Assembly: GCA_964609455.1 (NCBI GenBank)
Contig: CAZSRD010000005.1
Coordinates: 4,878-68,877 of the forward strand
Source of the DNA: an uncultured Methanosarcinales archaeon
Lineage (GTDB): Archaea; Nanobdellota; Nanobdellia; Woesearchaeales; JACPBV01
Direction of reading: 5' to 3'
Length of the DNA: 64,000 bases
Below, one piece after another: positions 2,069 to 55,204 of this stretch (positions are counted from its first letter, which is position 1; the number at the start of each line of letters is the position of its first letter). The position numbers and the translations under genes were made by a program. Below the pieces are notes generated by a model. The model was not told where the DNA came from, ran no database searches, and saw nothing but the letters and a program-made list of their open reading frames with translations.

Positions 2069-5000
2069 ATGGTTGGGGGGTTAAAGATTAAGAAAATATT
2101 AAGATTACTTTCTATTTTTGTAGTCATCTTCATAGTTTCTTTTTCTCTTGTATATGCATTAGGGGACACTAGGTCAAACTTTTTAAATATGGTACCCTTA
2201 CGTGAAAAACGCGAAATTAATACTTATGAACTTATAAAAAATTTTAACACATTGTATATATTAGATGAATATAACTCATTGCAAGCCCCTAGTGGATATT
2301 TATGGGTGGTTGATTCTCATTTAGGTAATAATAAGTTACTTAAAATAAACCCCTTAGATGGTAGTATAGAGGCCAGTTTTGATATAATTAGTAGCCCAAG
2401 TTTAATAGGTCTCGCTTTTGATGGAAATAATCTTTGGATATCTGATTCTAATAATAATAAGATATATAAATATTCTAGGGCGGGTTTATTACTAAATACA
2501 TATGATTGTCCGTCCCCTTGTCGTTATCCTTATGGCCTTACATGGGATGGAAATAACTTATGGGTTGCAGCAGAAACTTCTACTTATAGGGATTATAAAT
2601 TATTTAAACTATCTTCTGATTTAGGGAGTATACTTACTTCTATTGATATTCCTGTAGAATATCCTTGGGATCCTGAAGGACTAACTTGGGATGGTTCCTA
2701 CCTTTTATATACTGAAGACTCATTTAATGGTTATCTAAGAAAAGTTACGCCGTTAGGACAGATATATTCTAGGATTTATAGTGAATATGATATTTTTGGC
2801 CTTGCTTTTGATGGGCAAAACCCTTGGGTTTCTTTATGGGGTTCAAGTTCTCAACCAGCTTATATTGGGAAACTAGGTGCAGATTATAGGTTAAGTTTTG
2901 CTAAAGAATACCCGGGGATTCTACCTAGAGATTCTGCTTGGGAATCTACGTCGGTTTGTGATTGTGGCTCTTGGTCAAACCAAGGTTGCGGTCAGGGAGG
3001 TTGTGCAGCAGACAAAATGTATCAGACAAGAACATGCAATCCATCTGGTTGTGATACACAATCTCAATGTGTTAGTGATGCAAGTTGTAATCCGCAATGC
3101 TCAGGTACAGACACTTCATGCGGCACTTACCCTAGTTGTACAAACTGCAACTCCAATGATGGCTGCAATGGTGATTCCTATAGGAATTATTATTGTGTAA
3201 GTAATGCTGCTGGATGTAGCTATACATCTGATAACTGTAATGACTGCTCATGCACATGCGGCGGGTATAACACAGCAGAAACAACTGCAAATGGAAATTG
3301 CGGCGATGGAAAAGATAATGACTGTGATGGAGATACTGATGGAGCTGATTCTGGTTGCGCAACATGCTCAGGTACAGACACTTCATGCGGCACTTACCCT
3401 AACTGTTTGAATTGTAATTCTTATGATACCTGCTCAGGAAATTATTATTACAACTATTACTGTTCCGGAACTTCCTGTACTTATTCTTCTGACAGCTGCA
3501 CTGACTGCTCATGCACATGCGGCGGGTATAACACAGCAGAAACAACTGCAAATGGAAATTGCGGCGATGGAAAAGATAATGACTGTGATGGAGATACTGA
3601 TGGAGCTGATTCTGGTTGCCAATCATGTGAATGCAGTTCTGAAGTATGTTGTGATGGCTGCCATTATAAACCTTCAGGAAGCCAGCCAACAGGATATACT
3701 GATGATTCAAATGGGTTCTGTGATGGCTCTAATTCTCCAACAGGAACAAATTATGTAAAGACAAGGGATTATTACTGCGATGGGGTTGACGCAGGTTTAC
3801 ATTATTTAGATACTATAGTTGATACATGCAGTACTTGTGAATACTGCACAAATAATGACTTAACATGCAATTATTATACTTCTTCTACTGTTTGCGGTTC
3901 GCAGGATTGCGACTACCTTGATACAATATGCAGGGACTATATTGATATGAATATGTATTGCAGCGGAAGCAGCAGTACCTGTAGTGCTTTTTGTTCTTCT
4001 TATACAAATGCTCCTGCCGGAACTTCATGTGGGGCTAGTCAGGAATGCGATGGTAATGGAAATTGCATTCAGGTAAGCCATTGCAATAATGGTGTAAAAG
4101 ACTATGATGAGTTAGGTATAGACTGCGGCGGAAGCTGTTCAAATCACGATTGTTGTGAGAACAATTATGAAGATTCTAATCTAGGTGAAGATGGTGTTGA
4201 TTGTGGTGGAGTTTGCCATTATAGTTGTGTTGTCCCAGTTATTTTGGTTCATGGTTATCTTAGCACCTCTGCTTCTTTATCAAATTTTGAGAATTGGTTG
4301 AGGGCAGATGGCTTCGCAGTTTATAATGTTGATTATGCACAGGGTTCTGCTTTTGCTAATGGGGATATTACTGATTACGCAAAAGTCCTATGTAAAGAAA
4401 TAGACCGAATTAGGAGAGTTGAAAAAGTAAATTATGTGGATATAGTTGCTCACTCAATGGGGGGCCTGGTAGCGAGGGAGTGCTTATTGCATTATGAAAC
4501 ACAAAAGGGAGTAAGGAAACTAATAATGTTGGGAACACCAAATCATGGCACTAATGCATTCGAGTCAAGTAAATATTTCACAACCTATATTGTCTCAATA
4601 TTTGATATAGGCCGTGGCTATTTGCAAGATGTTGCTTTATTGAATAGTATATTGGGGGTTGCAAGAAATCAAATGAGAGTATGCTCCCCATTTTTGAATC
4701 ACCTTAATTTTGGCGGAGATGTTGATAAAAGCAAGTGTGAATATCCTGAGAAGAGCACAGATATTTTAGTTAATGAGGTGGAGTATGATAATTTGGCAGG
4801 AGTTGTTGGATTGAGTTCCTTATTTCATCTTAAAAATAATGATATGTTAGTTAGTGTTGTTAGTGCTTATCTGGATGGAGCTTATAGAAATAATCCTGCG
4901 TATGGGTATGACCACTTTAAACTTGTTAAAGAAACAGAAACTTACCAGTGGGTGAAATCTGTCCTGGATGAAGAAGTAGTTGGTTCTTTAAGTAAGCTAA

Positions 5001-13856: not shown

Positions 13857-14258
13857 GTGAGAAAGACAGCTTTAATTATCACTTTATTGGCAATCTTTTT
13901 TCTTTCAATCGTTTGGATTAGTGCAGAAAAAGGACAGGATCTTTTGTATAACCTCTCTGTTGAAGTTAGCAATGTAACCATGCTTAGCCCAACTCCAGAT
14001 TTGAATTTTGGAACTCTAAGGAAAGGCGAATCTGCTACTAAATCTATAACTTTGACAAACCCATTCCTATCTTTTCTTAGCATAAATGCTACATTCGATG
14101 GAGTACCAGAAGAATGGGCAGATGTTAATAGGGATTTTTTCATAGGTCCGTTTATGTCAAAAAAATTTTATATTACAATTTCTATACCAGAAGATTCGAG
14201 TGTAGGAATCTATAAGGGCAATGTCCTAATAAAAGCAAGAAGGAAATTAATAATATGA
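13857..14258 (+). CDS. small secreted or membrane-anchored hypothetical protein, possibly Ig-like fold
   Basis: N-terminal hydrophobic segment. No catalytic motif. Confidence 0.35.
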   Translation: MRKTALIITLLAIFFLSIVWISAEKGQDLLYNLSVEVSNVTMLSPTPDLNFGTLRKGESATKSITLTNPFLSFLSINATFDGVPEEWADVNRDFFIGPFMSKKFYITISIPEDSSVGIYKGNVLIKARRKLII

Positions 14259-16321
14259 ACAAAACAATTTTACTGATAATCATAGCAACAGTTTTGTTAA
14301 GTTCTTACGCTTTTGCAGGTACTTTTAATCAGCAAATCTATGGGCAGCTGGTTAGCTTTGTTAATTGCACAAATTGGATTAAAGATGGTGACGAGACAGA
14401 TATAGATTGCGGGGGTTCCTGTTCAAAGTGCGTTGATGGAAAGAACTGCTTAGTCAACTCTGGATGCTTGAGTAACTATTGCAACTTAAATAAGATATGC
14501 TCTACTCCTAATTGTCTAGATGGTTGGCAAAATCAGGACGAAATAGGAGTTGACTGCGGTGGAAGTTGCCCACCTTGTGTAAGTTGCAATAATAGGATAA
14601 AAGATGGTGATGAGGCGGGTGTTGATTGTGGGGGGAGCTGTTCAGATCCATGTTATGAATGGAGAGTTTTGGCTTTGCCTATAAGTTGGTCAGGCTCACA
14701 TCAGGAATTTGTAGATGATGTAGTCAATCAAATGAATTTTTTTATAAACTCAACCGATTTAGATAACTGCAGGGAAAGAATCTTTGTAGATATATTGGAT
14801 GCAGATGTTCATAATTTTAGGGATTTTTCTTGTTCTTTGAAGAACTGCGGTGTTGGTAGCATAAAGCCTTTTGTTGAAAGATTTGGGATAAACCTTAATC
14901 AATATGACCATATAATCGCATTTACAGATTCTTCGCCTTGCCCACCTTTTGAGGGATGTTCTAATGGGGAGGATGTTGCATGGGTAAGCGTTACTTATGA
15001 AACTGTTGCTGCACATGAAATAGGGCATTTCTATGGATTAGAGGATGAATATTGCAGCAATCAGGCTGGCTCAACACATCCCAACTGCAATGACGGCAAT
15101 GATGGATGGTGGAAAGATGGAAGTTATATCTTTCCAGATGATATAAACTACCTTGGGGCTGATTTGGGGTGTGACCCCCATATTGGCGATTGCTGCTCTG
15201 ATTGCAGTAAAGGAAATGATCCAAATGACCCCAATAATGATTATTTTGCCTGTTGCCATGGGAATATAGTTAATGCTCAGGGGGGTAGGGCAATAATGTC
15301 TTATGCTAATGCTCCTGGACCAAGAGCTTTTGATGATAGGTCTAAAGCTCATTTAAGCACTTTTCCAAAGCTTAGTTGCCCTAATCAAATTCAAGCGACG
15401 CAATTAGCTTCAGTAGTTTCAGATAAAATTATTGATTTGGATTTGTTGATACACAAGAATGATTCTATTTTGAATCAGAGAATAAATTTGGTAGATGGAA
15501 GTCCTTCAATTGTTAATTCAGAGGAAGGAATCTACAGTTTGCTGATAAAAGATGTAAATGGAATTGCCTTATTTAATTACACCTTTGAGCCATTTTTTTA
15601 TTACAATGGCCCTTTTGTTAAAGATGCAAATTATAGCGGAATAAATCTTGACGAGTATGACTTAAGCTTAAGAATAGGATATGATGATGAAATGCGCCAG
15701 CTGGAGTTAAGGAAGAATTCAACTATAATCTTTTCAGAGTTATTAAATTTCTGCAACCAAGATGAGGTATGCAACGGCTCTGAAACATATCTTTCATGCT
15801 GGGATGACTGCAAGTCTTATTCCCAGGATGGCTTATGCCTGAATTATTCTGGAGATGGCTGCGATCCTGATTGTGCTAAAGGTGTTGATTCTGATTGTAT
15901 ATCATTTAATCTCTTTTTTGATGATGATTGGAGCCTGATGTCAATACCTCTGGAGTTGGTGAATAGTTCTATTGCCTACTTGTTTTATGGGTTTAATATA
16001 AGCATTTATGGCTATAAGAATAGTTCATGGTTTGTGCCTGAAGAAATTGATAATAAGTTAGGTTATTGGGTTAAATCAAATGAGTCTAATAATATAACCT
16101 TGATTGGAACTAAGGTTAAGAATGGATTAATTGTTAATGGTCCAGGATGGCAATTAATTGGTTATCCTAACCTTGATGAGTCTTTGGTCAATGAAAGCTC
16201 CTTAAATGAATCGATTGTTTACGCTTATAATGGAACCTGGTCTATGTACAACATAGATAATAGGTTTACTAAACTGGATAAATTTATACCAGGATATGGC
16301 TATTGGGTCAAAGTTGAGTAA
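14255..16321 (+). CDS. secreted M64-like zinc metalloprotease with three N-terminal Cys-rich repeats and the shared C-terminal module
   Basis: HEIGHFYGLEDEY matches the Peptidase_M64 HExxHxxGLxDEY motif. Three repeats of KDGDE..(I/V)DCGGSC..C. C-terminus GWQLIGYPNLDES...IPGYGYWVKVE. Confidence 0.65.
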   Translation: MNKTILLIIIATVLLSSYAFAGTFNQQIYGQLVSFVNCTNWIKDGDETDIDCGGSCSKCVDGKNCLVNSGCLSNYCNLNKICSTPNCLDGWQNQDEIGVDCGGSCPPCVSCNNRIKDGDEAGVDCGGSCSDPCYEWRVLALPISWSGSHQEFVDDVVNQMNFFINSTDLDNCRERIFVDILDADVHNFRDFSCSLKNCGVGSIKPFVERFGINLNQYDHIIAFTDSSPCPPFEGCSNGEDVAWVSVTYETVAAHEIGHFYGLEDEYCSNQAGSTHPNCNDGNDGWWKDGSYIFPDDINYLGADLGCDPHIGDCCSDCSKGNDPNDPNNDYFACCHGNIVNAQGGRAIMSYANAPGPRAFDDRSKAHLSTFPKLSCPNQIQATQLASVVSDKIIDLDLLIHKNDSILNQRINLVDGSPSIVNSEEGIYSLLIKDVNGIALFNYTFEPFFYYNGPFVKDANYSGINLDEYDLSLRIGYDDEMRQLELRKNSTIIFSELLNFCNQDEVCNGSETYLSCWDDCKSYSQDGLCLNYSGDGCDPDCAKGVDSDCISFNLFFDDDWSLMSIPLELVNSSIAYLFYGFNISIYGYKNSSWFVPEEIDNKLGYWVKSNESNNITLIGTKVKNGLIVNGPGWQLIGYPNLDESLVNESSLNESIVYAYNGTWSMYNIDNRFTKLDKFIPGYGYWVKVE

Positions 16322-16353: not shown

Positions 16354-17121
16354 ATGCCACAACAACCACAGCAACAAATGAGCGAAGAGCAGATTAAGGA
16401 GCTGCAGGAAAAGGTTAAAAATATGTCTCCTGAAGAGCTTAAGGAGTTTCAGAAAAAGCAATGCATCTTCTGCCAAATCATTTCCGGAAAGGTTCAGTCA
16501 AGAAAGGTTTATGAGGATGATAAAAGCATTGCCATAATGGATATTAATCCTGCTAATCCAGGCCATGTTCTTCTTTTGCCAAAGGAGCATTATGCTATAA
16601 TGCCCCAGGTTCCGCCAGATGATCTTGCGCATCTTTTTATTGTTACAAAAACAATTTCTAATGCTTGTTTAAGGGCTTTGCAGGTTCAGGGCACGAATAT
16701 TATTGTGCAGAACGGCATTGCTGCCGGCCAAAAAGCGCAGCACTTTATGATTCATATAATTCCCAGAAAAGAGGATGACGGAATCAATTTTGAACTGCCC
16801 CAGAAGAAAATTTCTGAAAAACAGCTAGACACACTACAGGAGAAGCTTAGGTCTAAGCTAGGCGGTGTTATTGTACCCAATAGTTCGAGCGAAGCTCGAA
16901 CTAAGGAAACTAAGGCAATTGTTCAGCAGCCGGTTAAGCCAAAGGTCGTGGAGGCAGAATTTACCGTACCAAGTTCAGACATAGCCAAAACTAAGGAAGA
17001 AAATAAAGAAACAAAACCAGCTAAGAAAGAGCCTGTGAAAAATGAAGCAGGAAAAAAGAAATCAGCTAAGAAAAATGAAGTAAGCTTGGATGATATTGCT
17101 AATGTTTTAGGTGTGAAATGA
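16354..17121 (+). CDS. HIT-family protein with a degenerate histidine triad and a Lys/Glu-rich C-terminal tail
   Basis: CIFCQIISGKV...NPGHVLLLPKEH...AQHFMIHIIPR. The second His of HxHxH is Met. Confidence 0.7.
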   Translation: MPQQPQQQMSEEQIKELQEKVKNMSPEELKEFQKKQCIFCQIISGKVQSRKVYEDDKSIAIMDINPANPGHVLLLPKEHYAIMPQVPPDDLAHLFIVTKTISNACLRALQVQGTNIIVQNGIAAGQKAQHFMIHIIPRKEDDGINFELPQKKISEKQLDTLQEKLRSKLGGVIVPNSSSEARTKETKAIVQQPVKPKVVEAEFTVPSSDIAKTKEENKETKPAKKEPVKNEAGKKKSAKKNEVSLDDIANVLGVK

Positions 17122-17651
17122 ACGAACAATGCATCATATGCCAGATAATAGATGGAAAAGTTCCATCAAAGAAAATTTATGAAGATGACGAGATAGTTGC
17201 GCTTCTTGATTTTAATGGAGCTAACCCAGGGCATAGTTTTGTAATGCCAAAACAGCACTTTCCAATATTGGAGCAGATACCAGCAAAATTGATTGGCAAA
17301 TTGTTTAATGCCGCTAACAGGGTAAGCTCTGCTATTTTTGAAGCATTAGGCGTCCAGGGCACGAATATTTTTGTTGCAAATGGCATTTCTGCTGGGCAGA
17401 AAGTTGCGCACTTTATGATAAATGTTGTTCCAAGGACGGAGAATGATGGAATAAATATGCAATGGCAGCCAAGGCAGTTAGATGAAGAAGAGATGTCAAC
17501 GATAGAATTGAAGTTAAAAGAGGAGATTGGCAATGTTGGCATTGGAGAAGCGCCAGCTAAAAGCATGCAGCCTAAGAAGGCAGAGCTCATTCCTGAGAAG
17601 ATTTCTGGAGAAGAAAGTTACCTGGTTAAGCAGTTGAGGAGAATTCCTTAA
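17118..17651 (+). CDS. HIT-family paralog with a degenerate histidine triad
   Basis: CIICQIIDGKV...NPGHSFVMPKQH...AHFMINVVPR (H-phi-M-phi-N). Start overlaps the preceding stop (ATGA). Confidence 0.65.
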   Translation: MNEQCIICQIIDGKVPSKKIYEDDEIVALLDFNGANPGHSFVMPKQHFPILEQIPAKLIGKLFNAANRVSSAIFEALGVQGTNIFVANGISAGQKVAHFMINVVPRTENDGINMQWQPRQLDEEEMSTIELKLKEEIGNVGIGEAPAKSMQPKKAELIPEKISGEESYLVKQLRRIP

Positions 17652-19942: not shown

Positions 19943-20287
19943 GTGAATAACATGGCAGATGAACCAACAGATAAAATATATGAAGCAATTGAAACAGCTA
20001 AATCTACAGGAAAATTAAGGAGAGGAACAAACGAAGTAACAAAAGCAATAGAGAAGGGAACGGCAAAATTAGTTATTGTTGCTAAAGATGTAAATCCTCC
20101 TGAAATAACAATGCATATTCCATTATTATGCAAAGAAAAAGGAATAACCTGTGTTGAGGTGCCTTCTAAGGAAGAGTTAGGAGCTGCTTCAGGCATAGAA
20201 AAACCTACTGCTTCAGTGGCTATTGTCCAGGAAGGAGAGGCAAAGGGCTTAATAAAAGAAGTAACTGCAAGCGCAAAGAAAGAATAA
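19943..20287 (+). CDS. rpl7ae: ribosomal protein L7Ae
   Basis: KLRRGTNEVTKAIEKGTAKLVIVAKDVNPPEI is the L7Ae/L30e kink-turn binding fold signature. Confidence 0.9.
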   Translation: MNNMADEPTDKIYEAIETAKSTGKLRRGTNEVTKAIEKGTAKLVIVAKDVNPPEITMHIPLLCKEKGITCVEVPSKEELGAASGIEKPTASVAIVQEGEAKGLIKEVTASAKKE

Positions 20288-20288
20288 A

Positions 20289-20621
20289 ATGGCACAGAAA
20301 AAGATGGCTGGAAAAGAGGAATCAGTATCAGAAGACGGTAAAGTAGAGAATAAAAGGAGAGTAAAAGAGGAAGAAGTAAAGAAAGGCTCTGTTCATTTTA
20401 CACAAGCAATCCCTGCCAGGGTTGAGGAGGTTATTGGGAGGACAGGGACAAGAGGAGAAGCAATACAGGTGAGATGCAAGATTTTAGATGGAAGAGACCA
20501 AAATAAGGTTTTGAGAAGAAATGTCAGGGGGCCTATACAGGTTGGCGATGTTCTTATGCTAAGGGAAACTGAAATCGAGGCAAGGGCTTTAAGCAAAGCA
20601 GGCAGAGGCTCAGGGAGTTAG
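20289..20621 (+). CDS. rps28e: ribosomal protein S28e with a Lys/Glu-rich N-terminal extension
   Basis: ARVEEVIGRTGTRGEAIQVRCKILDGRDQNKVLRRNVRGPIQVGDVLMLRETE. Confidence 0.85.
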   Translation: MAQKKMAGKEESVSEDGKVENKRRVKEEEVKKGSVHFTQAIPARVEEVIGRTGTRGEAIQVRCKILDGRDQNKVLRRNVRGPIQVGDVLMLRETEIEARALSKAGRGSGS

Positions 20622-20625
20622 AAAA

Positions 20626-20796
20626 ATGGTAAAATGCACATTTTGCGGCAATATACTTGACCCAGGAACTGGGAAGATGTATGTTCAGAAGGATGCTAAG
20701 ATATTATATTTTTGCACTATGAAATGCGAAAAGAATATGTTAAAGTTAAAAAGAAAACCATATAATATAAAGTGGACTAAATCTTATAAAAAATAA
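20626..20796 (+). CDS. rpl24e: ribosomal protein L24e (56 aa; below the ORF-track size cutoff)
   Basis: Translation MVKCTFCGNILDPGTGKMYVQKDAKILYFCTMKCEKNMLKLKRKPYNIKWTKSYKK carries the C4 zinc ribbon typical of L24e. Confidence 0.8.
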   Translation: MVKCTFCGNILDPGTGKMYVQKDAKILYFCTMKCEKNMLKLKRKPYNIKWTKSYKK

Positions 20797-20797
20797 A

Positions 20798-21307
20798 ATG
20801 GCAGTCGAACAATCTTTGGTGCTAATAAAACCTGATGGATTAGTCAAATCTTTGACGGGAGATATCTTGTCAAAGATGTCTGAAATAGATCTTAAGATAG
20901 TTGGAGCTAAGATAGTCCAGGTTACCAGAGAATTAGCAGAAGAACATTACCAGCACCTTAGAGAAGAAAAGTTTTTTGATGAATTGATAAAATATATCAT
21001 GGGGGAGTACCATACAAAGAGGGTTTTGGCTTTGGTTTATCATGGTGAAGATGCTATCAAAAAGGTAAGGAAGATTGTAGGCGAGACAAACCCAGAGAAA
21101 GCAGAGCCTACATCCATAAGGGGAAAATATGGGAGGATTACATCTGCAGGAGTTTTTGAAAATGTTGTCCATGCTTCTGAAAATACAAAGGAATCAGAGA
21201 GAGAAATCAAATTGTGGTTCAGGCCAGATGAGCTGGTTTATACCCTTTATCCTACTGAATTAAGAAACGTACAAATAGATAAAGCCTTCTGGAAGGGGAA
21301 GAAATAG
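20798..21307 (+). CDS. ndk: nucleoside diphosphate kinase (divergent)
   Basis: LVLIKPDGLVKSLTGDILSKM at the N-terminus and a catalytic His context NVVHASEN. Confidence 0.8.
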   Translation: MAVEQSLVLIKPDGLVKSLTGDILSKMSEIDLKIVGAKIVQVTRELAEEHYQHLREEKFFDELIKYIMGEYHTKRVLALVYHGEDAIKKVRKIVGETNPEKAEPTSIRGKYGRITSAGVFENVVHASENTKESEREIKLWFRPDELVYTLYPTELRNVQIDKAFWKGKK

Positions 21308-21315
21308 GCGGTATT

Positions 21316-23508
21316 ATGGCAGAAAAGATGACCGAAAAGATATTCAGGATCATGAGATTTCCTGAGCAGATCAGAAATATTGCTACATGCGCGCATATTG
21401 ATCATGGTAAAACTACATTTTCAGATAATCTGCTTTCAGGAGCAGGAATGATGTCTAAGGATGATGCAGGAAAAGCGCTAAAGCTAGATTTCCATGAAGA
21501 TGAACAGCAGAGAGGAATTACAATTGATACAGCAGCTGTTTCTATGGTTCATAATTTTGAGGGTAAGGAATATTTGATTAATCTGCTTGATACACCAGGA
21601 CACGTTGATTTTGGCGGTGATGTTACAAGGGCCATGAGGGCAGTGGATGGCGCTATTGTCTTATGCTGCGCTGTTGAGGGCATAATGCCTCAGACAGAGA
21701 CTGTTCTAAGGCAGGCTCTTAAGGAGAGAGTAAGGCCAATTCTATATATAAACAAGGTTGACAGGCTGATCAAAGAAGTTAAATTAACACCTGAGCAAAT
21801 GCAGAAAAAATTTATTGATATCATCAATAATGTTAATAAGCTGATAAAAGAGATTGCAGAAAAAGAATTTGGAGACAAATGGCAAGTTAATGTACAAGAT
21901 GGTACAGTTGGTTTTGGATCAGCTTTTCACAATTGGGGCTTAAGCCTGCCTTATATGCAGAAGAAAGGAATCTCATTTAAAGATGTTATAGATGCTTATA
22001 GCGAGCCAGATGAAAATAAACAAAAAGAAAACATAAAAGCTTTAGCTGAAAAAGCTCCTCTGCATGAGGTTGTCCTTAATATGGTCATTAGGCATCACCC
22101 AAATCCAGTTCAAGCGCAGAATTATAGGATTCCCAAGATATGGCATGGTGAATTGGAATCAGAAGAGGGAAAATCACTAAGAGCATGTAATCCAAATGGG
22201 CCTTTATTTTTTGTTGTTACTAAGATAGTTGTCGATCCACAAGCTGGAGAGATTTCTGCTGGAAGGTTATTTTCAGGAACAATGGAAAAAGGAAAAGAAG
22301 TTTATCTTAGCATGGGCAAGACCACAGGGAGAGTGCAGCAGGTTTTTGTTTATAATGGAGCCAAGAGAGAGATTGTAGAAGATGCTCCTTGCGGCAATAT
22401 CATCGGTGTAGCTGGAATAAAAAGTTTTGTTGGAGAGACGGTTTCTTCAAAAGAAACAGAGCCTTTTGAAAAGATAAGCCATATTTTTGAGCCTGTCATA
22501 ACAAAAGCTATTGAAGCTACACAACCTTCAGATTTGCCTAAATTAGTTGAGATATTAAAGATTGTTGGGAAAGAAGATCCTACTATTCAGATTGAGATTA
22601 ATGAAGAGACTGGTGAGAATTTAATGCATGGAATGGGTGAGCTGCATTTAGAGGTTATTGAAAACAGAATCAGGGATGAAAAAGGCCTTAAGGTCAAAAC
22701 ATCCAACCCAATTGTTGTTTACAGAGAGACGATAACAAAGAAATCTCCTGAGGTTGAAGGAAAAACACCTAACAAACATAACAAGTTCTATTTTTATGTT
22801 GAGCCTTTAGAGCCTGCTATCAGAGAGGTTATTAAAAAAGGCGAGCTGCCTGAGATGAGATTCAAGAAAAAAGATCTGGCTGTCAGAGACAAATTAGTTG
22901 AGTGCGGGATGGACAGCAAGGTAGCTGTTAAGATCAAGAATATATATAAAGGCAATATGCTTATAGAGCAGACCAGGGGATTAGTGCATATTGGAGAAGT
23001 AATGGAGATGGTTCAGGACATGTTTGAAGATGTTATGAGATCCGGCCCTTTGGCAAAAGATCCATGCATTGGAGTTAAGGTTGTATTTACAGATGCTAAA
23101 CTGCACGAAGATGCTATCCATAGAGGCCCTGCCCAGGTTTATCCTGCTGTTAGGGAATCTATAAGGGGGGCGATGATGCAGGCCAGGCCATTGATGTTTG
23201 AGCCTTATCAGGTATTGCATATAGAAGCTCCAAATGAGTTTATGGGAGAACTTTCTAAGCTGATTTCGAATAAGAGGGGACAATTGTTAGACATGCAGCA
23301 GGAAGGAAGCTTGGTTATTGCAAAAGCTAAGATGCCAGTAGCTGAATTGTTAGGATGGAGCTCTGATTTGAGAAGCGCAACTGGCGGCAGAGGCAATAGC
23401 TCTTTAATAGACCAGATGTTTGAGAAACTGCCAGAAGAGCTGCAGCAGAAAGTCATTAAATCAATCAGAGGCAGAAAAGGATTAACAGATGCTATGGTTG
23501 GCGCGTAA
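21316..23508 (+). CDS. fusA: translation elongation factor 2 (aEF-2)
   Basis: G1 motif AHIDHGKTT, DTPGHVDF, and the diphthamide-site context LHEDAIHRG. Confidence 0.95.
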   Translation: MAEKMTEKIFRIMRFPEQIRNIATCAHIDHGKTTFSDNLLSGAGMMSKDDAGKALKLDFHEDEQQRGITIDTAAVSMVHNFEGKEYLINLLDTPGHVDFGGDVTRAMRAVDGAIVLCCAVEGIMPQTETVLRQALKERVRPILYINKVDRLIKEVKLTPEQMQKKFIDIINNVNKLIKEIAEKEFGDKWQVNVQDGTVGFGSAFHNWGLSLPYMQKKGISFKDVIDAYSEPDENKQKENIKALAEKAPLHEVVLNMVIRHHPNPVQAQNYRIPKIWHGELESEEGKSLRACNPNGPLFFVVTKIVVDPQAGEISAGRLFSGTMEKGKEVYLSMGKTTGRVQQVFVYNGAKREIVEDAPCGNIIGVAGIKSFVGETVSSKETEPFEKISHIFEPVITKAIEATQPSDLPKLVEILKIVGKEDPTIQIEINEETGENLMHGMGELHLEVIENRIRDEKGLKVKTSNPIVVYRETITKKSPEVEGKTPNKHNKFYFYVEPLEPAIREVIKKGELPEMRFKKKDLAVRDKLVECGMDSKVAVKIKNIYKGNMLIEQTRGLVHIGEVMEMVQDMFEDVMRSGPLAKDPCIGVKVVFTDAKLHEDAIHRGPAQVYPAVRESIRGAMMQARPLMFEPYQVLHIEAPNEFMGELSKLISNKRGQLLDMQQEGSLVIAKAKMPVAELLGWSSDLRSATGGRGNSSLIDQMFEKLPEELQQKVIKSIRGRKGLTDAMVGA

Positions 23509-23597
23509 AAAACTAATAAAACAGTAAGATTTATAAAGCAAGACAAAATTCCTACAGTATAAATATTCACATAAAAATCTAAACAAGGTGGTAAATA

Positions 23598-24878
23598 ATG
23601 GCTAAAGAAAAACAGCATATAAATTTGGTATTTATCGGTCACGTTGACCATGGAAAATCAACTACAGTAGGCAGAATGTTATATGATTCTAAGAATATCG
23701 ATGAACAGGCTATGAGGAAGCTAACAGAAAGAGCTAAAGAGCTTGGAAAACCTGGCTTTGAGTTTGCTTTCGTTATGGACAACCTAAAAGAAGAGCAGGA
23801 AAGAGGAGTTACAATAGACCTAGCTCACAAGAGATTTGATACACCTAAATATTATTTTACAATAATTGATGCGCCTGGGCACAAGGACTTTATCAAGAAC
23901 ATGATTACAGGAGCTGCTCAAGCAGATGCAGGTGTTGTTGTAGTAGATTGCTCAAATGGCGTGCAGGCACAAACAAAGGAACATATTTTCCTGGCAAGAA
24001 CCTTAGGGGTCAACCAGCTAATAATTGCTGTTAACAAGATGGACATGGTGAAGTATGATGAAGCCAGATTCAAGAAAGTAAAAGAAGAGGTTTCAACATT
24101 GCTGAAAACAGTAGGTTATAAGCCAGATACAATACCTTTCATACCAGAAGCAGCTTTACTTGGGCAGAACGTTGTTAATAAAAGCGACAAAATGCCCTGG
24201 TATACAGGCGCAACTTTGTTAGAAACATTGGATACATTAAGTCCACCTGAAAAACCAACAAACTTACCATTAAGGCTGCCAATACAAGATGTTTATAGCA
24301 TAACAGGGATTGGTGTTGTTCCAGTTGGAAGAGTTGAAACTGGAGTTATGAAAGTTGGAGACAAGGTTATTATAGTTCCAGGAAGAGAAGGAAAGGGAAT
24401 TACAGGCGAAGTTAAGACAATAGAGATGCATCATGAACAGATGCAGAAAGCAGAGCCTGGAGACAATATTGGATTTAATGTTAGGGGCATAGAGAAGAAA
24501 GACATAACAAGAGGAGATGTTTTAGGCCATACAGATAATCCGCCTTCACTTGCTACAGAATTCACAGCACAAATTGTTGTTTTAAACCATCCAACAGTTT
24601 TAACAGTTGGATACACACCAGTATTCCATATACATACAGCTCAGGTTGCATGCCAAATAGTTGCTATAGAGAAGAAATTAAATCCAGCAACTGGCGAAGT
24701 AATGCAGGAAAATCCAGATTTCATAAAGAATGGCGATGCAGCTATTATCAGAGTAAAGCCAGTTACACCATTAGTAATTGAAAGGCAGAAAGACATTCCA
24801 GAAATGAGCAGATTTGCAGTCAGAGATTCCGGCGCAACTGTTGCAGCAGGAATGTGCATTGACCTAGTGAAGAAGTAA
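23598..24878 (+). CDS. tuf: translation elongation factor 1-alpha (aEF-1A)
   Basis: [27 protein letters not shown] Shine-Dalgarno lies upstream. Confidence 0.95.
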
Positions 24879-24900
24879 ATTTTTTTATTTTTCTTCCCTC
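24879..24900 (+). terminator. oligo-T tract (atttttttatttttcttccc) downstream of tuf; archaeal-type terminator candidate
   Basis: T-runs immediately after the stop codon. Confidence 0.3.
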
Positions 24901-24954
24901 TATCGGGTCATGACAAGCTGAGCTTATCATGGAGTAAACTCCCAGTGATCGCAG

Positions 24955-25263
24955 ATGCAAAAAGCAAGAATAAAACTAGCAAGCACAGAAATCGCAAAAA
25001 TTAATGAAGTATGCGATTACATTAAAGATATTTCTACTAAGACTGGAGTTGACATGAGGGGCCCGATACCATTGCCAACAAAGAAGCTAAAGTTAGCTAC
25101 AAGGAAAGGGCCAGATGGCGGCGGGACTTCTACATGGGATAGATACGAGATGAGAATTTATAAAAGAGTTATTGATCTAGGCCTAGATGAAAGGGCTTTA
25201 AGATTGGTTATGAGAGTTCCTATTCCAGAAGGGCTTAATATTGAGATTGAGATGATTGAGTAG
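24955..25263 (+). CDS. rps10: ribosomal protein S10
   Basis: MQKARIKLASTE...MRGPIPLPTK is the S10 signature. Confidence 0.9.
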   Translation: MQKARIKLASTEIAKINEVCDYIKDISTKTGVDMRGPIPLPTKKLKLATRKGPDGGGTSTWDRYEMRIYKRVIDLGLDERALRLVMRVPIPEGLNIEIEMIE

Positions 25264-25268
25264 TTTTA

Positions 25269-26075
25269 CTAGTTTCTAATTTTATCTGCAATTCTTTTGG
25301 CTTCTCTAACAATTCTGGGGATCATATCCAGCCTTATCTCATATTCCCACAATAACTGTTCCATCTTTCTTATTTTTTTCTTGGTGTCTCTTCTTGTTAC
25401 CTTATCAACTTTATTTAAAGATTCTTTCTGTTCTTTTATTCCTTCTCTTAAAGCCCTGATACTTCTCTTTAGTTTTTCTTCTTCAATGTAAAAATTAGAG
25501 TATGCATAAGCCTCACGAATAGATTTTCCTGAACTCATAAAAGATACCATAGACGCTATTCTTGCTTCGATTTCATCATGATTTGTTATAAACAGCAATT
25601 CTTTAGACATCTTACGGCTAGATCTTGGTGCATCAGTCAGTTTTGCTACAGCTCTTTCTATTACCATATCCCTCCTTAGTTCTTCAGGAATATTAATTGT
25701 CATCTTGTTTTGCAGGATATGCTGATATTCATGTATCAACCAGGTTCTATTTCTTGGGTTGCTGTCTAATAGCTTTGCAGCCAGGTCTGGATTTCTTTCA
25801 ATTCTTTCTAGGGCTTGTTCAGACACACCAAATTGATCAATGTAAACATACATTTTCCCTGTTATCCTATTGTGGGCCCTAACACTATTTGCGCTGCCTG
25901 AATATAAGTCATAGAATCCACCAAATAGATGTTTAACAAGAAAACTATTCCTGATTATTACTTTTGGATTAGGCAACATTCCCTTAAAATTAGGATATTT
26001 AACACGAACATATCTTTGCAGATATTCAAAGGTCTTTGGGAATAACTCTGAAAAATAGCCTTTTTTAATGTTCAT
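25269..26075 (-). CDS. hypothetical protein with an HExxH motif; possible zincin-like metallopeptidase
   Basis: WLIHEYQHILQ. Charged helical C-terminal region. Higher GC than the flanks. Confidence 0.35.
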   Translation of the reverse strand: MNIKKGYFSELFPKTFEYLQRYVRVKYPNFKGMLPNPKVIIRNSFLVKHLFGGFYDLYSGSANSVRAHNRITGKMYVYIDQFGVSEQALERIERNPDLAAKLLDSNPRNRTWLIHEYQHILQNKMTINIPEELRRDMVIERAVAKLTDAPRSSRKMSKELLFITNHDEIEARIASMVSFMSSGKSIREAYAYSNFYIEEEKLKRSIRALREGIKEQKESLNKVDKVTRRDTKKKIRKMEQLLWEYEIRLDMIPRIVREAKRIADKIRN

Positions 26076-26198
26076 ATTTGATTATTTATCTGTTGGGATT
26101 ATAAACTTTTTGATGTGAAAACCAACATATTCAAATTAAAAGCAGTAATCTAACTATCTTTATTGAGATGATTGAGTAATTCTGAGTTATATTTATAA

Positions 26199-27176
26199 AT
26201 GCAGATTCGTTCTTCTACTATCAAAATGTCTTATAAACTAAGATATATCACTTTAAATTATCAACCTCCTGTTGCTATTGGATCAGAATCAGTTCTTTAT
26301 AGGGCAGAGGGCAATATGGTTAGGCATCTCTGTGTGAAAGAAGTTAGGCGTGATTCATTTAAAGACTCAAACCATAGACAATCAAGAGAATCAGCAGATA
26401 GAGACTGTATGCAACATGGAATAAACGATAAAGCTCGTAGGGACTCTTATAAGTTTAGAGTGCAACATCTTAGAACTGAAGCTGAAGTCGGAAAGACGTT
26501 ATATGAAGATGGTGAAATACCTGTTGTGCAGGTGTATGCCTTTAGAAGGGTCGGTATTCCTTTTTTTGAGGATGGTTATGACCTTGTTATGGAATATGTT
26601 CCAGGTAAAGACCTTAGTGATAAAGCATTTTTAGATACTTTGTCTTTTGAAGATAAACTAAATTACTTCTTTCAGACAGCATTGGCTTTAAAATATGTTC
26701 ATGGAAAAGGCTATTTGCATTTGGATGGAAAACCAAGAAATATTATGGTTTCTAATGGACATGTAAAACTTATTGACTTTGCTTATAGTTTACCTATTGG
26801 GACAATACCTTCCTTCTTTAGAGGGACTCCCGGGTATAGTCCTCCGGAACAGATTCTTTGTCGTTCTCTTGATGGGGGAACGGATGTATTTTCATTTGGG
26901 GTTGCATTTAATGTTATATTTGGGGGTCCTAAAATAAATGAACAGCTTAGGGGTACTACTTTCTTAAAGGGGTGGTCTGAGGGTGCATTTAATACAAGAA
27001 CACCAGCAGTAGAGACGTCTGATGAATTGAAAGATACTCCTAGGCTTGCCGAACTCATTAAAAGATGCACTATACCAAGAAGGAAGGTTAGAGTGCATAA
27101 TACAGATTTTTTAATTGATGAATTATGGAAGATAGGGAAAGAGTTAGGTATTAAATTGACAGAAACTTTTTCATAA
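26199..27176 (+). CDS. eukaryotic-like Ser/Thr protein kinase
   Basis: VKEV (beta3 Lys), HLDGKPRNI (HRDxKxxN-type catalytic loop), DFAYS (DFG), GTPGYSPPE (APE). Confidence 0.7.
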   Translation: MQIRSSTIKMSYKLRYITLNYQPPVAIGSESVLYRAEGNMVRHLCVKEVRRDSFKDSNHRQSRESADRDCMQHGINDKARRDSYKFRVQHLRTEAEVGKTLYEDGEIPVVQVYAFRRVGIPFFEDGYDLVMEYVPGKDLSDKAFLDTLSFEDKLNYFFQTALALKYVHGKGYLHLDGKPRNIMVSNGHVKLIDFAYSLPIGTIPSFFRGTPGYSPPEQILCRSLDGGTDVFSFGVAFNVIFGGPKINEQLRGTTFLKGWSEGAFNTRTPAVETSDELKDTPRLAELIKRCTIPRRKVRVHNTDFLIDELWKIGKELGIKLTETFS

Positions 27177-27192
27177 AAAACCAACAGAATTC

Positions 27193-28860
27193 TTAGATTA
27201 GTCTTGCCGTTAAAGGAGTGTTTGCGCAGTAGACACTGAAAGTGCTATCTTCCCTGATAAATATAGCATTACAACGGGCATCTCTCGCTTCAGCAAATTT
27301 TTCTCTTGCGTTATCAGTAGCTAGTTGTATCCCTAATTTTGTACGATCCTCATCTAAATCATGGCGTGTTTCTGGGCAGAACCATCTTCCTAAGTCGCCA
27401 CCATAAGACAAGCCTTTTCCATAACTGGCATAATTTAATGCATCTCCATTATACCTGTAAATTCTTGCTTCTGATGTTGCTGTTTTTATCATAAATATAT
27501 GGTTGTCCTCAACTACCCAGACTATGTCGTGAGGTTGCTTGGACATTGTTGTTCTGTATTGAAGGGCTTTTTGCTTTAACCTTTTCATCTCTTCAGCTTT
27601 GGTGTTACAAACACTTGCTTCAATCAGATGTTCTCCTGGGTCTTCCATTGGTAGTACAGATTCTAAATCTGGCCTTTCCCAAACGGATATAGCATCAAAT
27701 GCTGCTCTTTTCAATAGGGCAGTTGCAAATTTTCTTCCGTCTTCATGAAGCCTTTTTATAGCTTCTAGCGTAAACGGCTGCCTTAAATATAATTCTGGAT
27801 GCTTTGAATTTTGGTTTATGTTAATGAGCCTAAGGATATGATCTCCTTCCCATCCGGCGGGCCTTCTCTCTTGAGAGTAAATAGTGAATGCTTCAATTGT
27901 TCTGCTCAACTCTTCTTCCCAGAAGATACTTAAATCTCTGCCAGGCAATATGCTTGTTCCGTCTCTGTATAACCTTGCTGCCAGATTCTTTGTTTCGGAT
28001 TTTAGTTCATACCAATCCCTGCTTTGAACTAAAGACCTAACTTCTTTCCACCACATTTGTGCTGGGTTAAAGGTTGGCCATTCAATTCCCATAAATCTTT
28101 CTTTTGCAAGTGCATCTGCACTCACTACATATGCCATAAATTCCCTTGCATCTGCTCTTCCTTTACCTTTTAGATATTCTTCCCATACAATATTTACGTT
28201 TGCTTTGTAGTTAGAGGTTATATTTTCTTTTTCATCTCCTAATAAAATCGCTAATTTTACTAAATCAATGAATTCATCTTTTTTATCGTCCTTGAGATTA
28301 CCCCTAAAAAGATTTTCATAAAAAAGAGAGCAAAATCTTTTTCTATGCTCTTTTAACATTTCCATTAGTTTGGCGCCATATTGTTCTCTTAATTTTTCGG
28401 CAAAGTCTGGCTGCGCAATTGCTTTTTTTGCCAAAGCATGCCAAACTACTCGATACCATCTTCTCGGTTCTTGGTTATAAATCGATTCATTGTTATGTAT
28501 GTGTACATCACGGTGGTCGAGCAAAGCATACAGTTGTTCAGGAGCATAATATAAAGCAACTGCTTTCTCACATAATCTTTGGGTTCTTGCTACGTCAAGC
28601 TTATTTTCTGTTGGTACATATACTGTTTCTTTTTCAGCTATCTGTTTTACTGCTTCTTCCATCAAAGTTATCTCTGCATCTGACATCTCCTCAAGCCCGC
28701 CTGTGACAGGGTCTTTCAGCCAATCAGTCATTCTACGCTGCCATAATATGTGTACATAAGGATCTTCTGTTCTAGGGAAATCTCCAACTGAATCAAGAAA
28801 CATCTGTGTATCTCTGCTTTTTACCGCTGCTTCAAGCCCCCCAAAGTTTACTTCGGTCAT
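27193..28860 (-). CDS. large hypothetical protein (555 aa) with no recognisable domain
   Basis: Long ORF. Its composition is richer in G+C (noticeably more CGN and GCN codons) than the neighbouring core genes. Confidence 0.4.
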   Translation of the reverse strand: MTEVNFGGLEAAVKSRDTQMFLDSVGDFPRTEDPYVHILWQRRMTDWLKDPVTGGLEEMSDAEITLMEEAVKQIAEKETVYVPTENKLDVARTQRLCEKAVALYYAPEQLYALLDHRDVHIHNNESIYNQEPRRWYRVVWHALAKKAIAQPDFAEKLREQYGAKLMEMLKEHRKRFCSLFYENLFRGNLKDDKKDEFIDLVKLAILLGDEKENITSNYKANVNIVWEEYLKGKGRADAREFMAYVVSADALAKERFMGIEWPTFNPAQMWWKEVRSLVQSRDWYELKSETKNLAARLYRDGTSILPGRDLSIFWEEELSRTIEAFTIYSQERRPAGWEGDHILRLININQNSKHPELYLRQPFTLEAIKRLHEDGRKFATALLKRAAFDAISVWERPDLESVLPMEDPGEHLIEASVCNTKAEEMKRLKQKALQYRTTMSKQPHDIVWVVEDNHIFMIKTATSEARIYRYNGDALNYASYGKGLSYGGDLGRWFCPETRHDLDEDRTKLGIQLATDNAREKFAEARDARCNAIFIREDSTFSVYCANTPLTARLI

Positions 28861-28940
28861 TAATAGAGAAGAATGAATTTTGATTTAAAAAGTTATCTGA
28901 AAAAACTAAAAAAACCAACAATTTTATATATAAAACGATT

Positions 28941-29018: not shown

Positions 29019-29816
29019 ATGAAAAACAAAAAAATTTCAAAAAAAGACCTTATTCAAGAAGTACATAATCTGGAACTTACATTACATAGGAGGCCAGTTA
29101 AAAGGGATAACGCAACATTATACAAAAATTCTAGAGAGTTTTTTGGTTCTTGGAATAAGATGTTATTTTCAGCAGGATACTCTGTTCAATTTTTACAAAA
29201 AATAGGTTCATATACATTTAATCATAATTTTGCATATTTTTTAGGATTATTAATCACTGATGGGCATATTGCTTATGATAAAAGACGAGAAAACTACAAA
29301 GTGGCCATCTATACTAGTTATCCAGACGAAAGAGATATGTTAGTAAAACTAATCAGGCATATATTTGAGTATAATGCACGTATTAGCAAGAAGAAGGCAG
29401 GGTATAATGTGAAATTTAATTTTGAAGTTAGGATAAATTCTAAAAAGCTTGCTGAGGATTTAATTGATGATTATTGTATTCCTTCAGGTAAAAAATCTTT
29501 AAACGTTCGTTTACCAAATTTCTTATTTAATACACAAATAAGGTGTAAGGAATCTTTTTTAAGGGGGGTTATTGATGGTGATGGTTCTATTACAAAGAGG
29601 GGAATAAAAATTGTATCTGGTTCTACACTTTTCCTTAAAGATTTGAAACATTTTTTATTCACTTTAAAAATTCACACTGGTAGTATTATAAAGGAGCACG
29701 ATAGAAATACTTATTCAATTAGGATTAATAAGAAAGAAGATTGGATTAAAATTAAACGAATTTACTCTTTTGGATATTTCTATAAGCGAAAGAGAGAAAG
29801 TATCAATAAGATTTAA
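29019..29816 (+). CDS. free-standing double-motif LAGLIDADG homing-endonuclease-like protein
   Basis: Two LAGLIDADG motifs: FAYFLGLLITDGHIAYD and FLRGVIDGDGSITK. Confidence 0.75.
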   Translation: MKNKKISKKDLIQEVHNLELTLHRRPVKRDNATLYKNSREFFGSWNKMLFSAGYSVQFLQKIGSYTFNHNFAYFLGLLITDGHIAYDKRRENYKVAIYTSYPDERDMLVKLIRHIFEYNARISKKKAGYNVKFNFEVRINSKKLAEDLIDDYCIPSGKKSLNVRLPNFLFNTQIRCKESFLRGVIDGDGSITKRGIKIVSGSTLFLKDLKHFLFTLKIHTGSIIKEHDRNTYSIRINKKEDWIKIKRIYSFGYFYKRKRESINKI

Positions 29817-29844
29817 ATAGGAGAAGCTAACCTCCCTGTACTAT

Positions 29845-29999
29845 CCCCGCTTAGTTTAGACTAACATTTTTTAGTGTTGGGAACAATGGCTAGAACGGTC
29901 GGCTGTAGATAAGATCACTTACTGACTTTGCATTTTGCATAGAATGAAAGTAAGTCAGCTGGTACCGACAAATCCCTGGTTCAAGTCCGGGAGCGGGGA
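29845..29999 (+). tRNA. tRNA-Tyr(GTA) with a canonical 55-nt anticodon intron and a probable second intron of about 27 nt in the D-arm
   Basis: Acceptor CCCCGCT/AGCGGGG. Anticodon arm GTCGG-CTGTAG[intron]A-CCGAC. T-arm CCTGG-TTCAAGT-CCGGG. The D region is 46 nt instead of 19. Mature length would be 73 nt. Confidence 0.7.
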
Positions 30000-30131
30000 T
30001 TTCTTATTTTTTATTTTATTTCTTGATATATTTTCTTGATGTATTAAAAATAGTAAACTTTATATACTTCCTATAATATTATATTGAATATTACTTAAAA
30101 TATTTGAAATAATATTATTCAAAATACTAAA

Positions 30132-30287
30132 ATGGGCTATAGAGTAAAGATACAGGAGACAAACAGGGGGCAAAAGATATTGAATATTCCAAAAGTAGTT
30201 TCAGCGCTGTTTAATTTAAAGCGCGGCATGGAATGTGAGTGGGTGTTGGAGAAGGGGGAGTTGACGCTAAAAGTTCCAAATAGGTAA
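30132..30287 (+). CDS. small AbrB/SpoVT-like (swapped-hairpin) DNA-binding protein, 51 aa; not in the ORF track
   Basis: MGYRVKIQETNRGQKILNIPKVVSALFNLKRGMECEWVLEKGELTLKVPNR resembles the VapB/AbrB pattern. Confidence 0.3.
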   Translation: MGYRVKIQETNRGQKILNIPKVVSALFNLKRGMECEWVLEKGELTLKVPNR

Positions 30288-30452
30288 AATTTAGTGAATT
30301 ACCTATCAAAAAACGATAGATTTAAATATAATGAGGAAATTCAACGCATAATGGCAGTTAATCTTTCTTTAGTTGAAATGCTATGATATTGAGCGTTATA
30401 TAATTATAAGAGGAAGAACTGCCTTTGCAATATAAAACAAAGCAGATATGGT

Positions 30453-30541
30453 GCCCTGGTGGTGTAGTGGCCTATCATGAAGCCCTGTCGATGCTATAGA
30501 AGCAGAACGGCTTCGACCCGAGTTCGAATCTCGGCCGGGGC
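30453..30541 (+). tRNA. tRNA-Asp(GTC) with an intron of about 17 nt in the anticodon loop
   Basis: GCCCTGGTGGTGTAGTGGCCTATCATG-AAGCC-CTGTC-G[ATGCTATAGAAGCAGAA]C-GGCTT. T-arm CCGAG-TTCGAAT-CTCGG. Acceptor 3' strand CCGGGGC. Closely matches archaeal tRNA-Asp. Confidence 0.8.
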
Positions 30542-30544
30542 GTA

Positions 30545-30657
30545 GGGCCCGTAGCTCAGCCTGGTTAGAGCGCCTCACTTTTAATGAGGTGGCCGCGCGT
30601 TCGAACAGCAGGTCAGCCAAAGGTTGATCACGACGCTCTGAAAATCGCGTCGGGCCC
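30545..30657 (+). tRNA. tRNA-Lys(TTT) with a non-canonical intron of about 39 nt in the T-loop
   Basis: GGGCCCG-TA-GCTC-AGCCTGGTTA-GAGC-G-CCTCA-CTTTTAA-TGAGG-TGGCC-GCGCG-TTCGAA[39 nt]T-CGCGT-CGGGCCC-A. Starts 3 nt after tRNA-Asp. Confidence 0.7.
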
Positions 30658-54102: not shown

Positions 54103-54175
54103 ATCACAATATCTTCTCTTCTTCTTTATCTTTAGAGTTCTCCATAATTTTTTATGATTAAAAAGAATAAAAAAT

Positions 54176-54294
54176 GCGAGGAGGAGGATTCGAACCCCCG
54201 TAAGCACTAAGCTAATAGGTGTCTTACAAAAGTGACCTAAGCTTGGACATTTCTTGAGAAAATCTATCCCGTTTGGCCACTCCGGCATCCTCGC
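54176..54294 (-). tRNA. intron-containing class II-type tRNA (long variable arm, discriminator A; Leu-like), intron about 36 nt, anticodon not resolved by eye
   Basis: Minus strand GCGAGGA-TG-CCG-GAGTGGCCAAA-CGG-G-ATAGA...CCTAT-(AGC-TTAGT-GCT)TAC-GGGGG-TTCGAAT-CCTCC-TCCTCGC. Acceptor and T-arm pair perfectly. 119 nt in total. Confidence 0.65.
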
Positions 54295-54946: not shown

Positions 54947-55087
54947 TTAAATCACTAAATTTTACTTAGTTGAGACTATTTAAATGATTTTTAGTTTTTT
55001 TAGCAAAAATCATAATTTAATAGTCGAAACATTATTTAAAGTGATTTAAATATAAAAGAATTGGAGTTTAAATATCTTGCTTAATTT

Positions 55088-55107
55088 GACCACTCCGGCA
55101 TCTCCGC
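55088..55107 (-). repeat. degenerate partial copy of the 54176-54294 tRNA 5' end (GCGGAGATGCCGGAGTGGTC versus GCGAGGATGCCGGAGTGGCC)
   Basis: 17 of 20 positions identical. Located on the far side of the LAGLIDADG ORF from the intact tRNA. Confidence 0.5.
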
Positions 55108-55204
55108 ACAATAGGCTAAGAAAATTGGCCATTATAAAAATCTTTCTACTTCTATGTTGGAAATTAATAAAATTTAAATATGACCTGTTGAGCAAAGAAT
55201 TAAG

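Follow-up and report, generated by a model that had tools for sequence, protein, structure and literature searches.

What are three long genes doing between a ribosomal protein S10 gene and a cluster of tRNA and RNA polymerase genes in an archaeal genome, and did they arrive there together? The question is raised by a 64,000-nt segment (35.9% G+C; hereafter, the window) from a host that searches anchored on S10 assign to Woesearchaeota, among the DPANN archaea. The trio consists of ORF268, which encodes a 268-aa protein with an HExxH motif (25269-26075, minus strand), a gene for a 325-aa Hanks-type Ser/Thr protein kinase (26199-27176, plus strand), and ORF555, which encodes a 555-aa protein (27193-28860, minus strand). 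An initial annotation had correctly delineated these three open reading frames (ORFs), as well as the LAGLIDADG/tRNA-Tyr locus that adjoins them, and had taken the trio for a G+C-rich island that interrupts a conserved gene order, with a horizontally acquired signaling or defense cassette and a proviral remnant as candidates. Our analysis leads to a different view: we consider it probable that the locus is a variable inter-operon junction that gathered three unrelated, host-adapted accessory genes piecemeal. The arrangement itself is real, since the identical locus recurs on independently assembled contigs from at least four samples, with at least 99.9% identity to the window and few single-nucleotide polymorphisms, and an assembly chimera can therefore be set aside. 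None of the three genes has a paralog within the window.

Composition and gene order around S10

The trio was said to be visibly richer in G+C than its surroundings, with more CGN and GCN codons. Calculation does not bear this out. Gene G+C is 0.340, 0.363, and 0.387 for the trio, against a mean of 0.360 (standard deviation, 0.034) for the other 55 ORFs, and reaches 0.385-0.396 in the genes for EF-2, EF-1a, and S10. The trio region as a whole stands at the 57th percentile of same-size segments in G+C (0.364) and at the 50th in tetranucleotide distance from the window, and the synonymous codon deviation of the three genes lies between the 13th and the 51st percentiles; G+C at third codon positions (GC3) is below average in all three and is 0.24 in the kinase gene. 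One part of the codon claim did stand, in that CGN codons are indeed more frequent in the trio (13 of 1148 codons) than elsewhere (60 of 17589; p 4e-4), but the ratio of CGN to AGR codons is the same as in other genes (p 0.13; p 0.73 when only non-core genes are compared), and the GCN difference (6.9% versus 5.6%) is marginal. The CGN count is raised because the trio proteins are Arg-rich, with twice the Arg content of the others, and because their neighbors combine high expression with a strict choice of codons: EF-2, EF-1a, S10, NDK, and S28e contain no CGN codon at all. The earlier reader probably noticed CGN codons next to these CGN-free neighbors. G+C, GC3, tetranucleotides, synonymous codon usage, and the Arg codon ratio together rule out a compositional island. 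The initial annotation had named windowed G+C and codon usage as the check and uniform composition as the outcome that would speak against it; composition proves uniform, and its headline claim falls on its own terms. A composition indistinguishable from that of the host also argues against a recent island. We see the main value of the present analysis in this correction: an island perceived by eye from CGN and GCN codons vanishes on calculation.

The gene order that the trio was thought to break turns out to be an operon boundary. We compared about 160 S10-anchored loci of relatives, drawn from species-representative genomes and metagenomes. The L7Ae-S28e-NDK-EF2-EF1a-S10 cluster is kept in at least 16 Woesearchaeota loci and terminates at S10; rpoH is found within 10 kb downstream of S10 in 0 of the ~160, and in distant archaea the canonical order has the rpo genes upstream of EF-2, EF-1a, and S10. 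Among the 62 relatives with at least 1.5 kb of sequence downstream of S10, the 239 downstream ORFs form families of which the largest occurs in at most four loci, and the first ORF 3' of S10 is split 31/31 between the strands. Synteny thus generally breaks down 3' of S10, a flank that varies throughout Woesearchaeota, and the trio occupies a naturally variable inter-operon gap; because the flank is hypervariable across the lineage, no conserved order of translation and transcription genes has been interrupted. The suggested comparison with related genomes did reveal a presence/absence difference: neither ORF268, nor the kinase, nor ORF555 occurs in any of the ~160 loci, the closest of which shares ~86% S10 identity with the window and all of which vary downstream of S10.

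The kinase, ORF268, and ORF555

The kinase matches Pfam Pkinase (PF00069) over residues 89-300 with 74.2 bits (cut-off, 31.7; E 1.4e-20). As the initial annotation had read, it keeps the catalytic Lys, the HxD/KxxN loop, DFA, and PPE: K47, H174-x-D176-x-K-P-x-N181, D193-F-A, and G-T-x-G-Y-x-P-P-E are all present, and the catalytic set of K47, E94, D176, N181, and D193 is invariant in a five-sequence alignment of its subfamily. The motifs of this subfamily are G-x-ESVLY, C-x-K, HxDxKPxN, DF(G/A), GTxGYxxPEQ, and the C-terminal CTIPRR, which is invariant across the alignment; DFG is replaced by DFA in the archaeal copy. A canonical GxGxxG Gly-rich loop is absent, its place being taken by G28-S-E-S-V-L-Y in the window kinase and by G-A-E-S-V-L-Y in the relatives, and, judged from the alignment, the nucleotide-binding loop is atypical yet conserved in the subfamily. 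The kinase is predicted to be soluble, has a complete catalytic core, and is probably active. A TATA-like sequence, TTATATTTATAA, lies directly upstream of the gene (26187-26198) at a position that fits a start at M10, and the true start may be this codon, at 26226, downstream of the TATA-like sequence.

Full-length relatives of the kinase amount to four clusters among 5.8 billion proteins (37-44% identity, E 1e-48 to 1e-64); the matches that follow are generic kinases (E ~1e-10), and the subfamily totals about five clusters. The relatives lie on contigs of 55-71% G+C, where their neighbors encode RF-1/PCRF, a SurA-type rotamase, ArgJ, and transketolase and thereby identify the contigs as bacterial. 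Every bootstrap (200/200) recovers a monophyletic subfamily, and 164/200 put the archaeal kinase as the sister of the clade of bacterial members, with which it shares 39-45% identity; among themselves, these share 45-52%. The host-like composition of the kinase gene, its low GC3 included, implies that any transfer between the domains, in whichever direction, would be old or from an unsampled donor. The window thus places in a DPANN archaeon a rare Hanks-kinase subfamily that is otherwise bacterial. At two of the bacterial loci (L087 and L090), a gene for an AP_endonuc_2 protein (a xylose-isomerase-like TIM barrel) lies one to three genes upstream of the kinase relative, a common neighbor which suggests that, in that bacterial group, the kinase gene belongs to the chromosome and is passed on vertically.

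The other two proteins have a single homolog each. ORF268 encodes a basic protein (isoelectric point, 9.9) that is predicted to be soluble and all-helical, with long C-terminal helices and no transmembrane segment. The HExxH motif noted in the initial annotation is present as H115-E116-Y-Q-H119 and is invariant in the sole homolog, P0003 (36-42% identity), a comparison of two sequences only. P0003 is encoded on a 1.3-kb contig of 28% G+C, where it sits beside a serine hydroxymethyltransferase gene and not beside S10. Searches of Pfam, NCBIfam, and PDB sequences returned no match to ORF268 at any threshold. Its AlphaFold (AF2) model, with a predicted local distance difference test (pLDDT) score of 56.6, is too poor to define a fold, and the best Foldseek hit in the PDB (E 1.9) is not significant. 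The protein is possibly a zincin-like hydrolase, as its motif would suggest.

ORF555 was described as lacking a recognizable domain, and this holds across Pfam, NCBIfam, PADLOC, PHROGs, and the PDB, none of which has a matching family. The protein is predicted to be soluble, helical to about residue 390, and beta-rich at about residues 445-545. An exhaustive HMMER search of 1.84 billion representatives found one relative, P0124, with 26% identity over residues 241-469 (E 3.8e-11), encoded on a contig of 1.9 kb. The AlphaFold model has a pLDDT of 46.8, and no PDB entry was a significant Foldseek match. ORF268 and ORF555 thus bring to light two near-orphan protein families.

The strands of the trio alternate, and each gene has a TATA-like box of its own, the kinase having that described above, ORF268 having TTTATAAT at -30 to -23 of its ATG (26098-26105), and ORF555 having TTTTTAAAT at -31 to -23 of its start (28883-28891). 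We infer that each gene would form its own transcription unit. Nor was the trio, or any pair from it, seen elsewhere: the check for co-occurrence suggested by the initial annotation found no ORF268 or ORF555 in the contexts of all four kinase relatives and no partner gene beside P0003 or P0124, whose contigs span 1.3-1.9 kb. Given the alternating strands, the separate promoter-like sequences, and this lack of co-occurrence, there is no demonstrable cassette. Of the proposal that the trio is a horizontally acquired cassette, the accessory and acquired status of the genes survives, in view of their absence from relatives, the bacterial kin of the kinase, and a duplication of the S10 end described below, whereas the notions of a recent island and of a cassette do not.

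Repeats in the spacers and competing histories

A 20-nt direct repeat brackets ORF268 and its promoter region exactly. Copy 1, ATTGAGATGATTGAGTAGTT (25246-25265, plus strand), comprises the last five S10 codons, the stop codon, and 2 nt; copy 2, ATTGAGATGATTGAGTAATT (26162-26181, plus strand), lies 17 nt before the kinase ATG, offset by 916 bp, and is identical to copy 1 at 19/20 positions. With three mismatches allowed, 0.02 such matches are expected by chance in the window, and a comparable repeat pair arose in 1/300 Markov simulations of the 6.2-kb region. In two relatives (L015 and L097), the S10 gene natively ends in exactly the sequence of copy 2, the downstream flank being similar as well, and copy 2 therefore looks like a genuine S10 end displaced by 916 bp. 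On the simplest reading, ORF268 would have been inserted between S10 and a kinase gene that formerly lay directly after S10. If so, the locus would illustrate cleanly how the insertion of one gene can be marked by the duplicated 3' end of a ribosomal protein gene.

A shorter motif recurs in the spacers. Copy 1, the 10-mer AAAACCAACA (26118-26127, plus strand; TGTTGGTTTT on the minus strand), is 43-52 nt upstream of the ORF268 start. Copy 2, AAAAAACCAACA (27175-27186, plus strand), lies in the 16-nt spacer between the kinase and ORF555; read on the minus strand as TGTTGGTTTTTT, it falls just past the ORF555 stop and resembles an oligo-T terminator. Copy 3, again AAAAAACCAACA (28909-28920, plus strand), is 51-60 nt upstream of the ORF555 start, and copies 2 and 3 form a perfect 12-nt direct repeat that flanks ORF555 (27/20000 simulations). 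The 10-mer occurs four times in the window (0.28 expected), with three of these occurrences, at 26118, 27177, and 28911, in trio spacers. It may represent a scar of insertion, serve as an operator that ORF268 and ORF555 share upstream of their starts, or belong to an oligo-T terminator. Two other explanations were discarded. An ancestral site downstream of S10 is ruled out because the 10-mer is not found there in the relatives, where it has overall background frequency. Homology between the ORF268 and ORF555 upstream regions was rejected when their apparent colinear alignment proved to be at background (rank 18/496, p 0.07).

We posit that the 5.4-kb junction, which extends from the end of the S10 cluster to the tRNA/rpoH cluster, would have collected unrelated accessory genes singly. 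The kinase, from a rare subfamily otherwise found on bacterial contigs only, would most likely phosphorylate cytoplasmic targets and would either be old enough in the lineage or come from a similar enough donor to match host composition completely. ORF268 would be a unit of ~916 bp inserted between S10 and the kinase, leaving the 20-nt S10 3'-end duplicate, and ORF555 would be a near-orphan flanked by the 12-nt direct repeat; the three genes would have no functional link to one another. Both bacterial-type genes and lineage-specific hypothetical families are documented in DPANN archaea (Castelle et al. 2021, PMC8204110). Three observations weigh against piecemeal gathering. The 10-mer common to all three spacers (1/20000 simulations) could reflect common regulation or a common insertion mechanism, in which case the genes may not be fully independent. 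The AlphaFold models of ORF268 and ORF555 are too poor for fold assignment, which leaves room for kinase-linked functions. Finally, the best S10 identities in the genome and metagenome contig scans are 84-86% among the matches listed, with no genome above ~86%, so that the absence of the trio pertains to relatives at this distance or beyond. If the pattern of repeats is general, it would bear on how reduced symbiont genomes gain genes.

The same observations feed several other histories. Were the three genes one functional signaling or defense module, with the kinase as sensor or effector, the HExxH protein as protease, and ORF555 as a large partner, the 10-mer could coregulate them: it is common to all three spacers, lies at similar distances upstream of ORF268 (-52 to -43) and ORF555 (-60 to -51), and the surroundings of the trio are hypervariable, with a homing endonuclease gene next to it. 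Moreover, the kinase domain scores on the PADLOC profiles of the defense kinases mad6 (78 bits) and PD-T4-6 (60 bits). These matches, however, span just the generic core of the kinase and are not stronger than those to Pfam Pkinase or PknB, neither ORF268 nor ORF555 matches a defense family in PADLOC, no kinase relative has them as neighbors, the strands alternate, and the upstream similarity of ORF268 and ORF555 is unexceptional; we regard such a module as unlikely, and the defense cassette of the initial annotation loses its footing with it. Vertical inheritance of lineage-specific genes that look like orphans since close relatives are unsampled, with the repeats being regulatory or fortuitous, would account for the host-like composition and for the position of the kinase as sister to the bacterial clade and not nested inside it. 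It is in keeping with the distance of the nearest sampled genomes, just ~75-86% identical in S10 and EF-1a, and with the wealth of lineage-specific hypothetical families in DPANN archaea (PMC8204110). Against it, the 20-nt S10-end duplication on either side of ORF268 is difficult to account for unless something was inserted, homologs of ORF268 and the kinase occur in unrelated contexts, and the kinase subfamily is elsewhere bacterial only; we find this history rather unlikely.

An origin as a recent genomic island, a degraded provirus, or an integrative element tied to the adjacent tRNAs and LAGLIDADG gene, as the initial annotation had it, is already largely refuted and hardly credible. The proximity of tRNA-Tyr, tRNA-Asp, tRNA-Lys, and a homing endonuclease gene, the orphan genes, and the direct repeats may all bring such an element to mind, but composition does not deviate, PHROGs matches in the region are limited to the generic kinase and the endonuclease, with no integrase, capsid, or other viral hallmark family, and no tRNA-derived att repeats bound the trio region. 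IMG/VR scans, likewise, found no relative of ORF268 or ORF555 and, for the kinase, weak and generic core matches to giant-virus contigs only; the proviral remnant is thus left with neither viral relatives nor the means of integration. A quite improbable variant of stepwise gain makes the S10 3' flank a hotspot of site-specific gene capture that would need no integrase, each gene representing a separate insertion marked by short direct repeats. The marks may be the S10-end duplication of 20 nt for ORF268 and, for the kinase and ORF555, the AAAAAACCAACA motif on either side, and the adjacent free-standing LAGLIDADG endonuclease might favor insertion by making double-strand breaks. The recurrence of a 10-12-nt motif in all three spacers may recall an integron-like cassette array, but there is no integrase and no attC-like structure in the motif, and the orientations alternate. 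A hotspot, if true, would mean cassette-like gene gain in reduced archaeal genomes. On balance, we favor a variable junction filled one gene at a time.

Neighboring features and comparison with known systems

To the left, the junction is bounded by the S10 gene (24955-25263, plus strand; Pfam Ribosomal_S10), the last gene of the L7Ae, S28e, NDK, EF-2, EF-1a, and S10 cluster (19943-25263, plus strand). To the right of ORF555 and outside the trio comes the free-standing LAGLIDADG homing-endonuclease-like gene (29019-29816, plus strand; LAGLIDADG_3, 4.8e-13; phrog_4645, 7e-16), whose product has an N-terminal HNH_repeat. A tRNA-Tyr(GTA) gene (29844-30000, plus strand) follows 27 nt downstream and contains two introns, one of ~25-30 nt in the D loop and a canonical one of 55 nt; default ARAGORN and Rfam searches miss it, and ARAGORN calls tRNA-Tyr after in silico removal of the D-loop intron. 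Between this gene and tRNA-Asp lies a 51-aa ORF (30132-30287, plus strand), and contig L001 has it among its called genes too; an impression from its sequence that it encodes an AbrB/SpoVT-like protein was dropped, there being no significant Pfam match. The right boundary is formed by tRNA-Asp(GTC) and the adjoining tRNA-Lys(TTT) (together, 30452-30619, plus strand), a pair located 56 nt upstream of rpoH. The tRNA-Asp gene (30452-30543) is unusually long, 92 nt according to ARAGORN, and probably contains an intron or insertion. From 30675 onward, rpoH, rpoB'', rpoB', rpoA', and rpoA'' follow on the plus strand.

Another LAGLIDADG gene of the free-standing kind (54224-54946, minus strand; LAGLIDADG_3, 3.7e-15) lies in a region that extends from 54175 to 55108. 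Its 3' end overlaps the 5' part of an intron-containing tRNA gene (54175-54294, minus strand; Rfam, 36.8 bits) that ARAGORN misses, and the first ~24 nt of this tRNA gene are duplicated (21/24) at 55085-55108, upstream of the LAGLIDADG gene, which looks like an insertion at the tRNA 5' end with target duplication. This duplication gives some color to the idea of gene capture next to S10. LAGLIDADG-like ORFs are also present in or near the translation-gene cluster of other Woesearchaeota, at 5366-5884 of L031 (between NDK and EF-2) and at 18955-19383 of L053, which suggests that free-standing homing endonuclease genes recur around conserved translation genes.

Elsewhere in the window, an 1835-aa ORF (2069-7576) encodes a giant repeat-domain protein and contains long internal DNA repeats that are nearly identical (for example, 3239-3359 and 3500-3620; around 6287-6867, the periods are 228 and 342 nt). 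A 26-nt repeat (24/26) at 12991-13016 and 16289-16314 forms the 3' ends of the ORFs at 10093-13023 and 14255-16321; the two proteins therefore end in a common C-terminal tail that may serve for sorting or anchoring. The ORFs at 16354-17121 and 17118-17651 are tandem paralogs that have 18-20-nt DNA repeats in common and match the same genes of relatives.

Hanks-type kinases are common in Archaea (PMC7226565), and the solved structures closest to the window kinase are those of PknB, PknA, and StkP (E ~1e-23). It resembles these bacterial Hanks-type kinases in its profile match, the catalytic Lys, the alphaC Glu, HxDxKPxN, and the Mg-binding Asp, but lacks a transmembrane segment as well as PASTA or any other sensor domain, and it differs from them in the G-x-E-S-V-L-Y loop, DFA, and the C-terminal CTIPRR; compared with its bacterial subfamily relatives, it lacks their Pro-rich N-terminal extension. 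Its kinase domain also aligns to the profiles of anti-phage kinase systems in PADLOC (MADS mad6, PD-T4-6, Stk2, and MkoA), although only through the generic core (positions 129-293 of 659 in the mad6 profile), and the partner genes of these systems are absent here. ORF268 is like zincin-type metallopeptidases in having a conserved HExxH in a predicted helix and conserved E168/E170 ~50 residues downstream, and unlike them in having no profile or PDB match, being very basic, and ending in a long coiled-coil-like tail.

Free-standing homing endonuclease genes are found beside variable regions in other settings, such as seg and mob in T4-like phages. Here, too, a free-standing LAGLIDADG gene abuts a variable block, but the setting is a cellular archaeal chromosome, and there is no sign that the endonuclease mobilized the trio. 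In the account of DPANN gene content cited above (PMC8204110), the kinase subfamily and the locus are not treated, and the word kinase appears once, in acetate kinase. The locus nevertheless conforms to the picture drawn there, as a case of Woesearchaeota carrying a bacterial-related gene together with hypothetical proteins that have next to no relatives.

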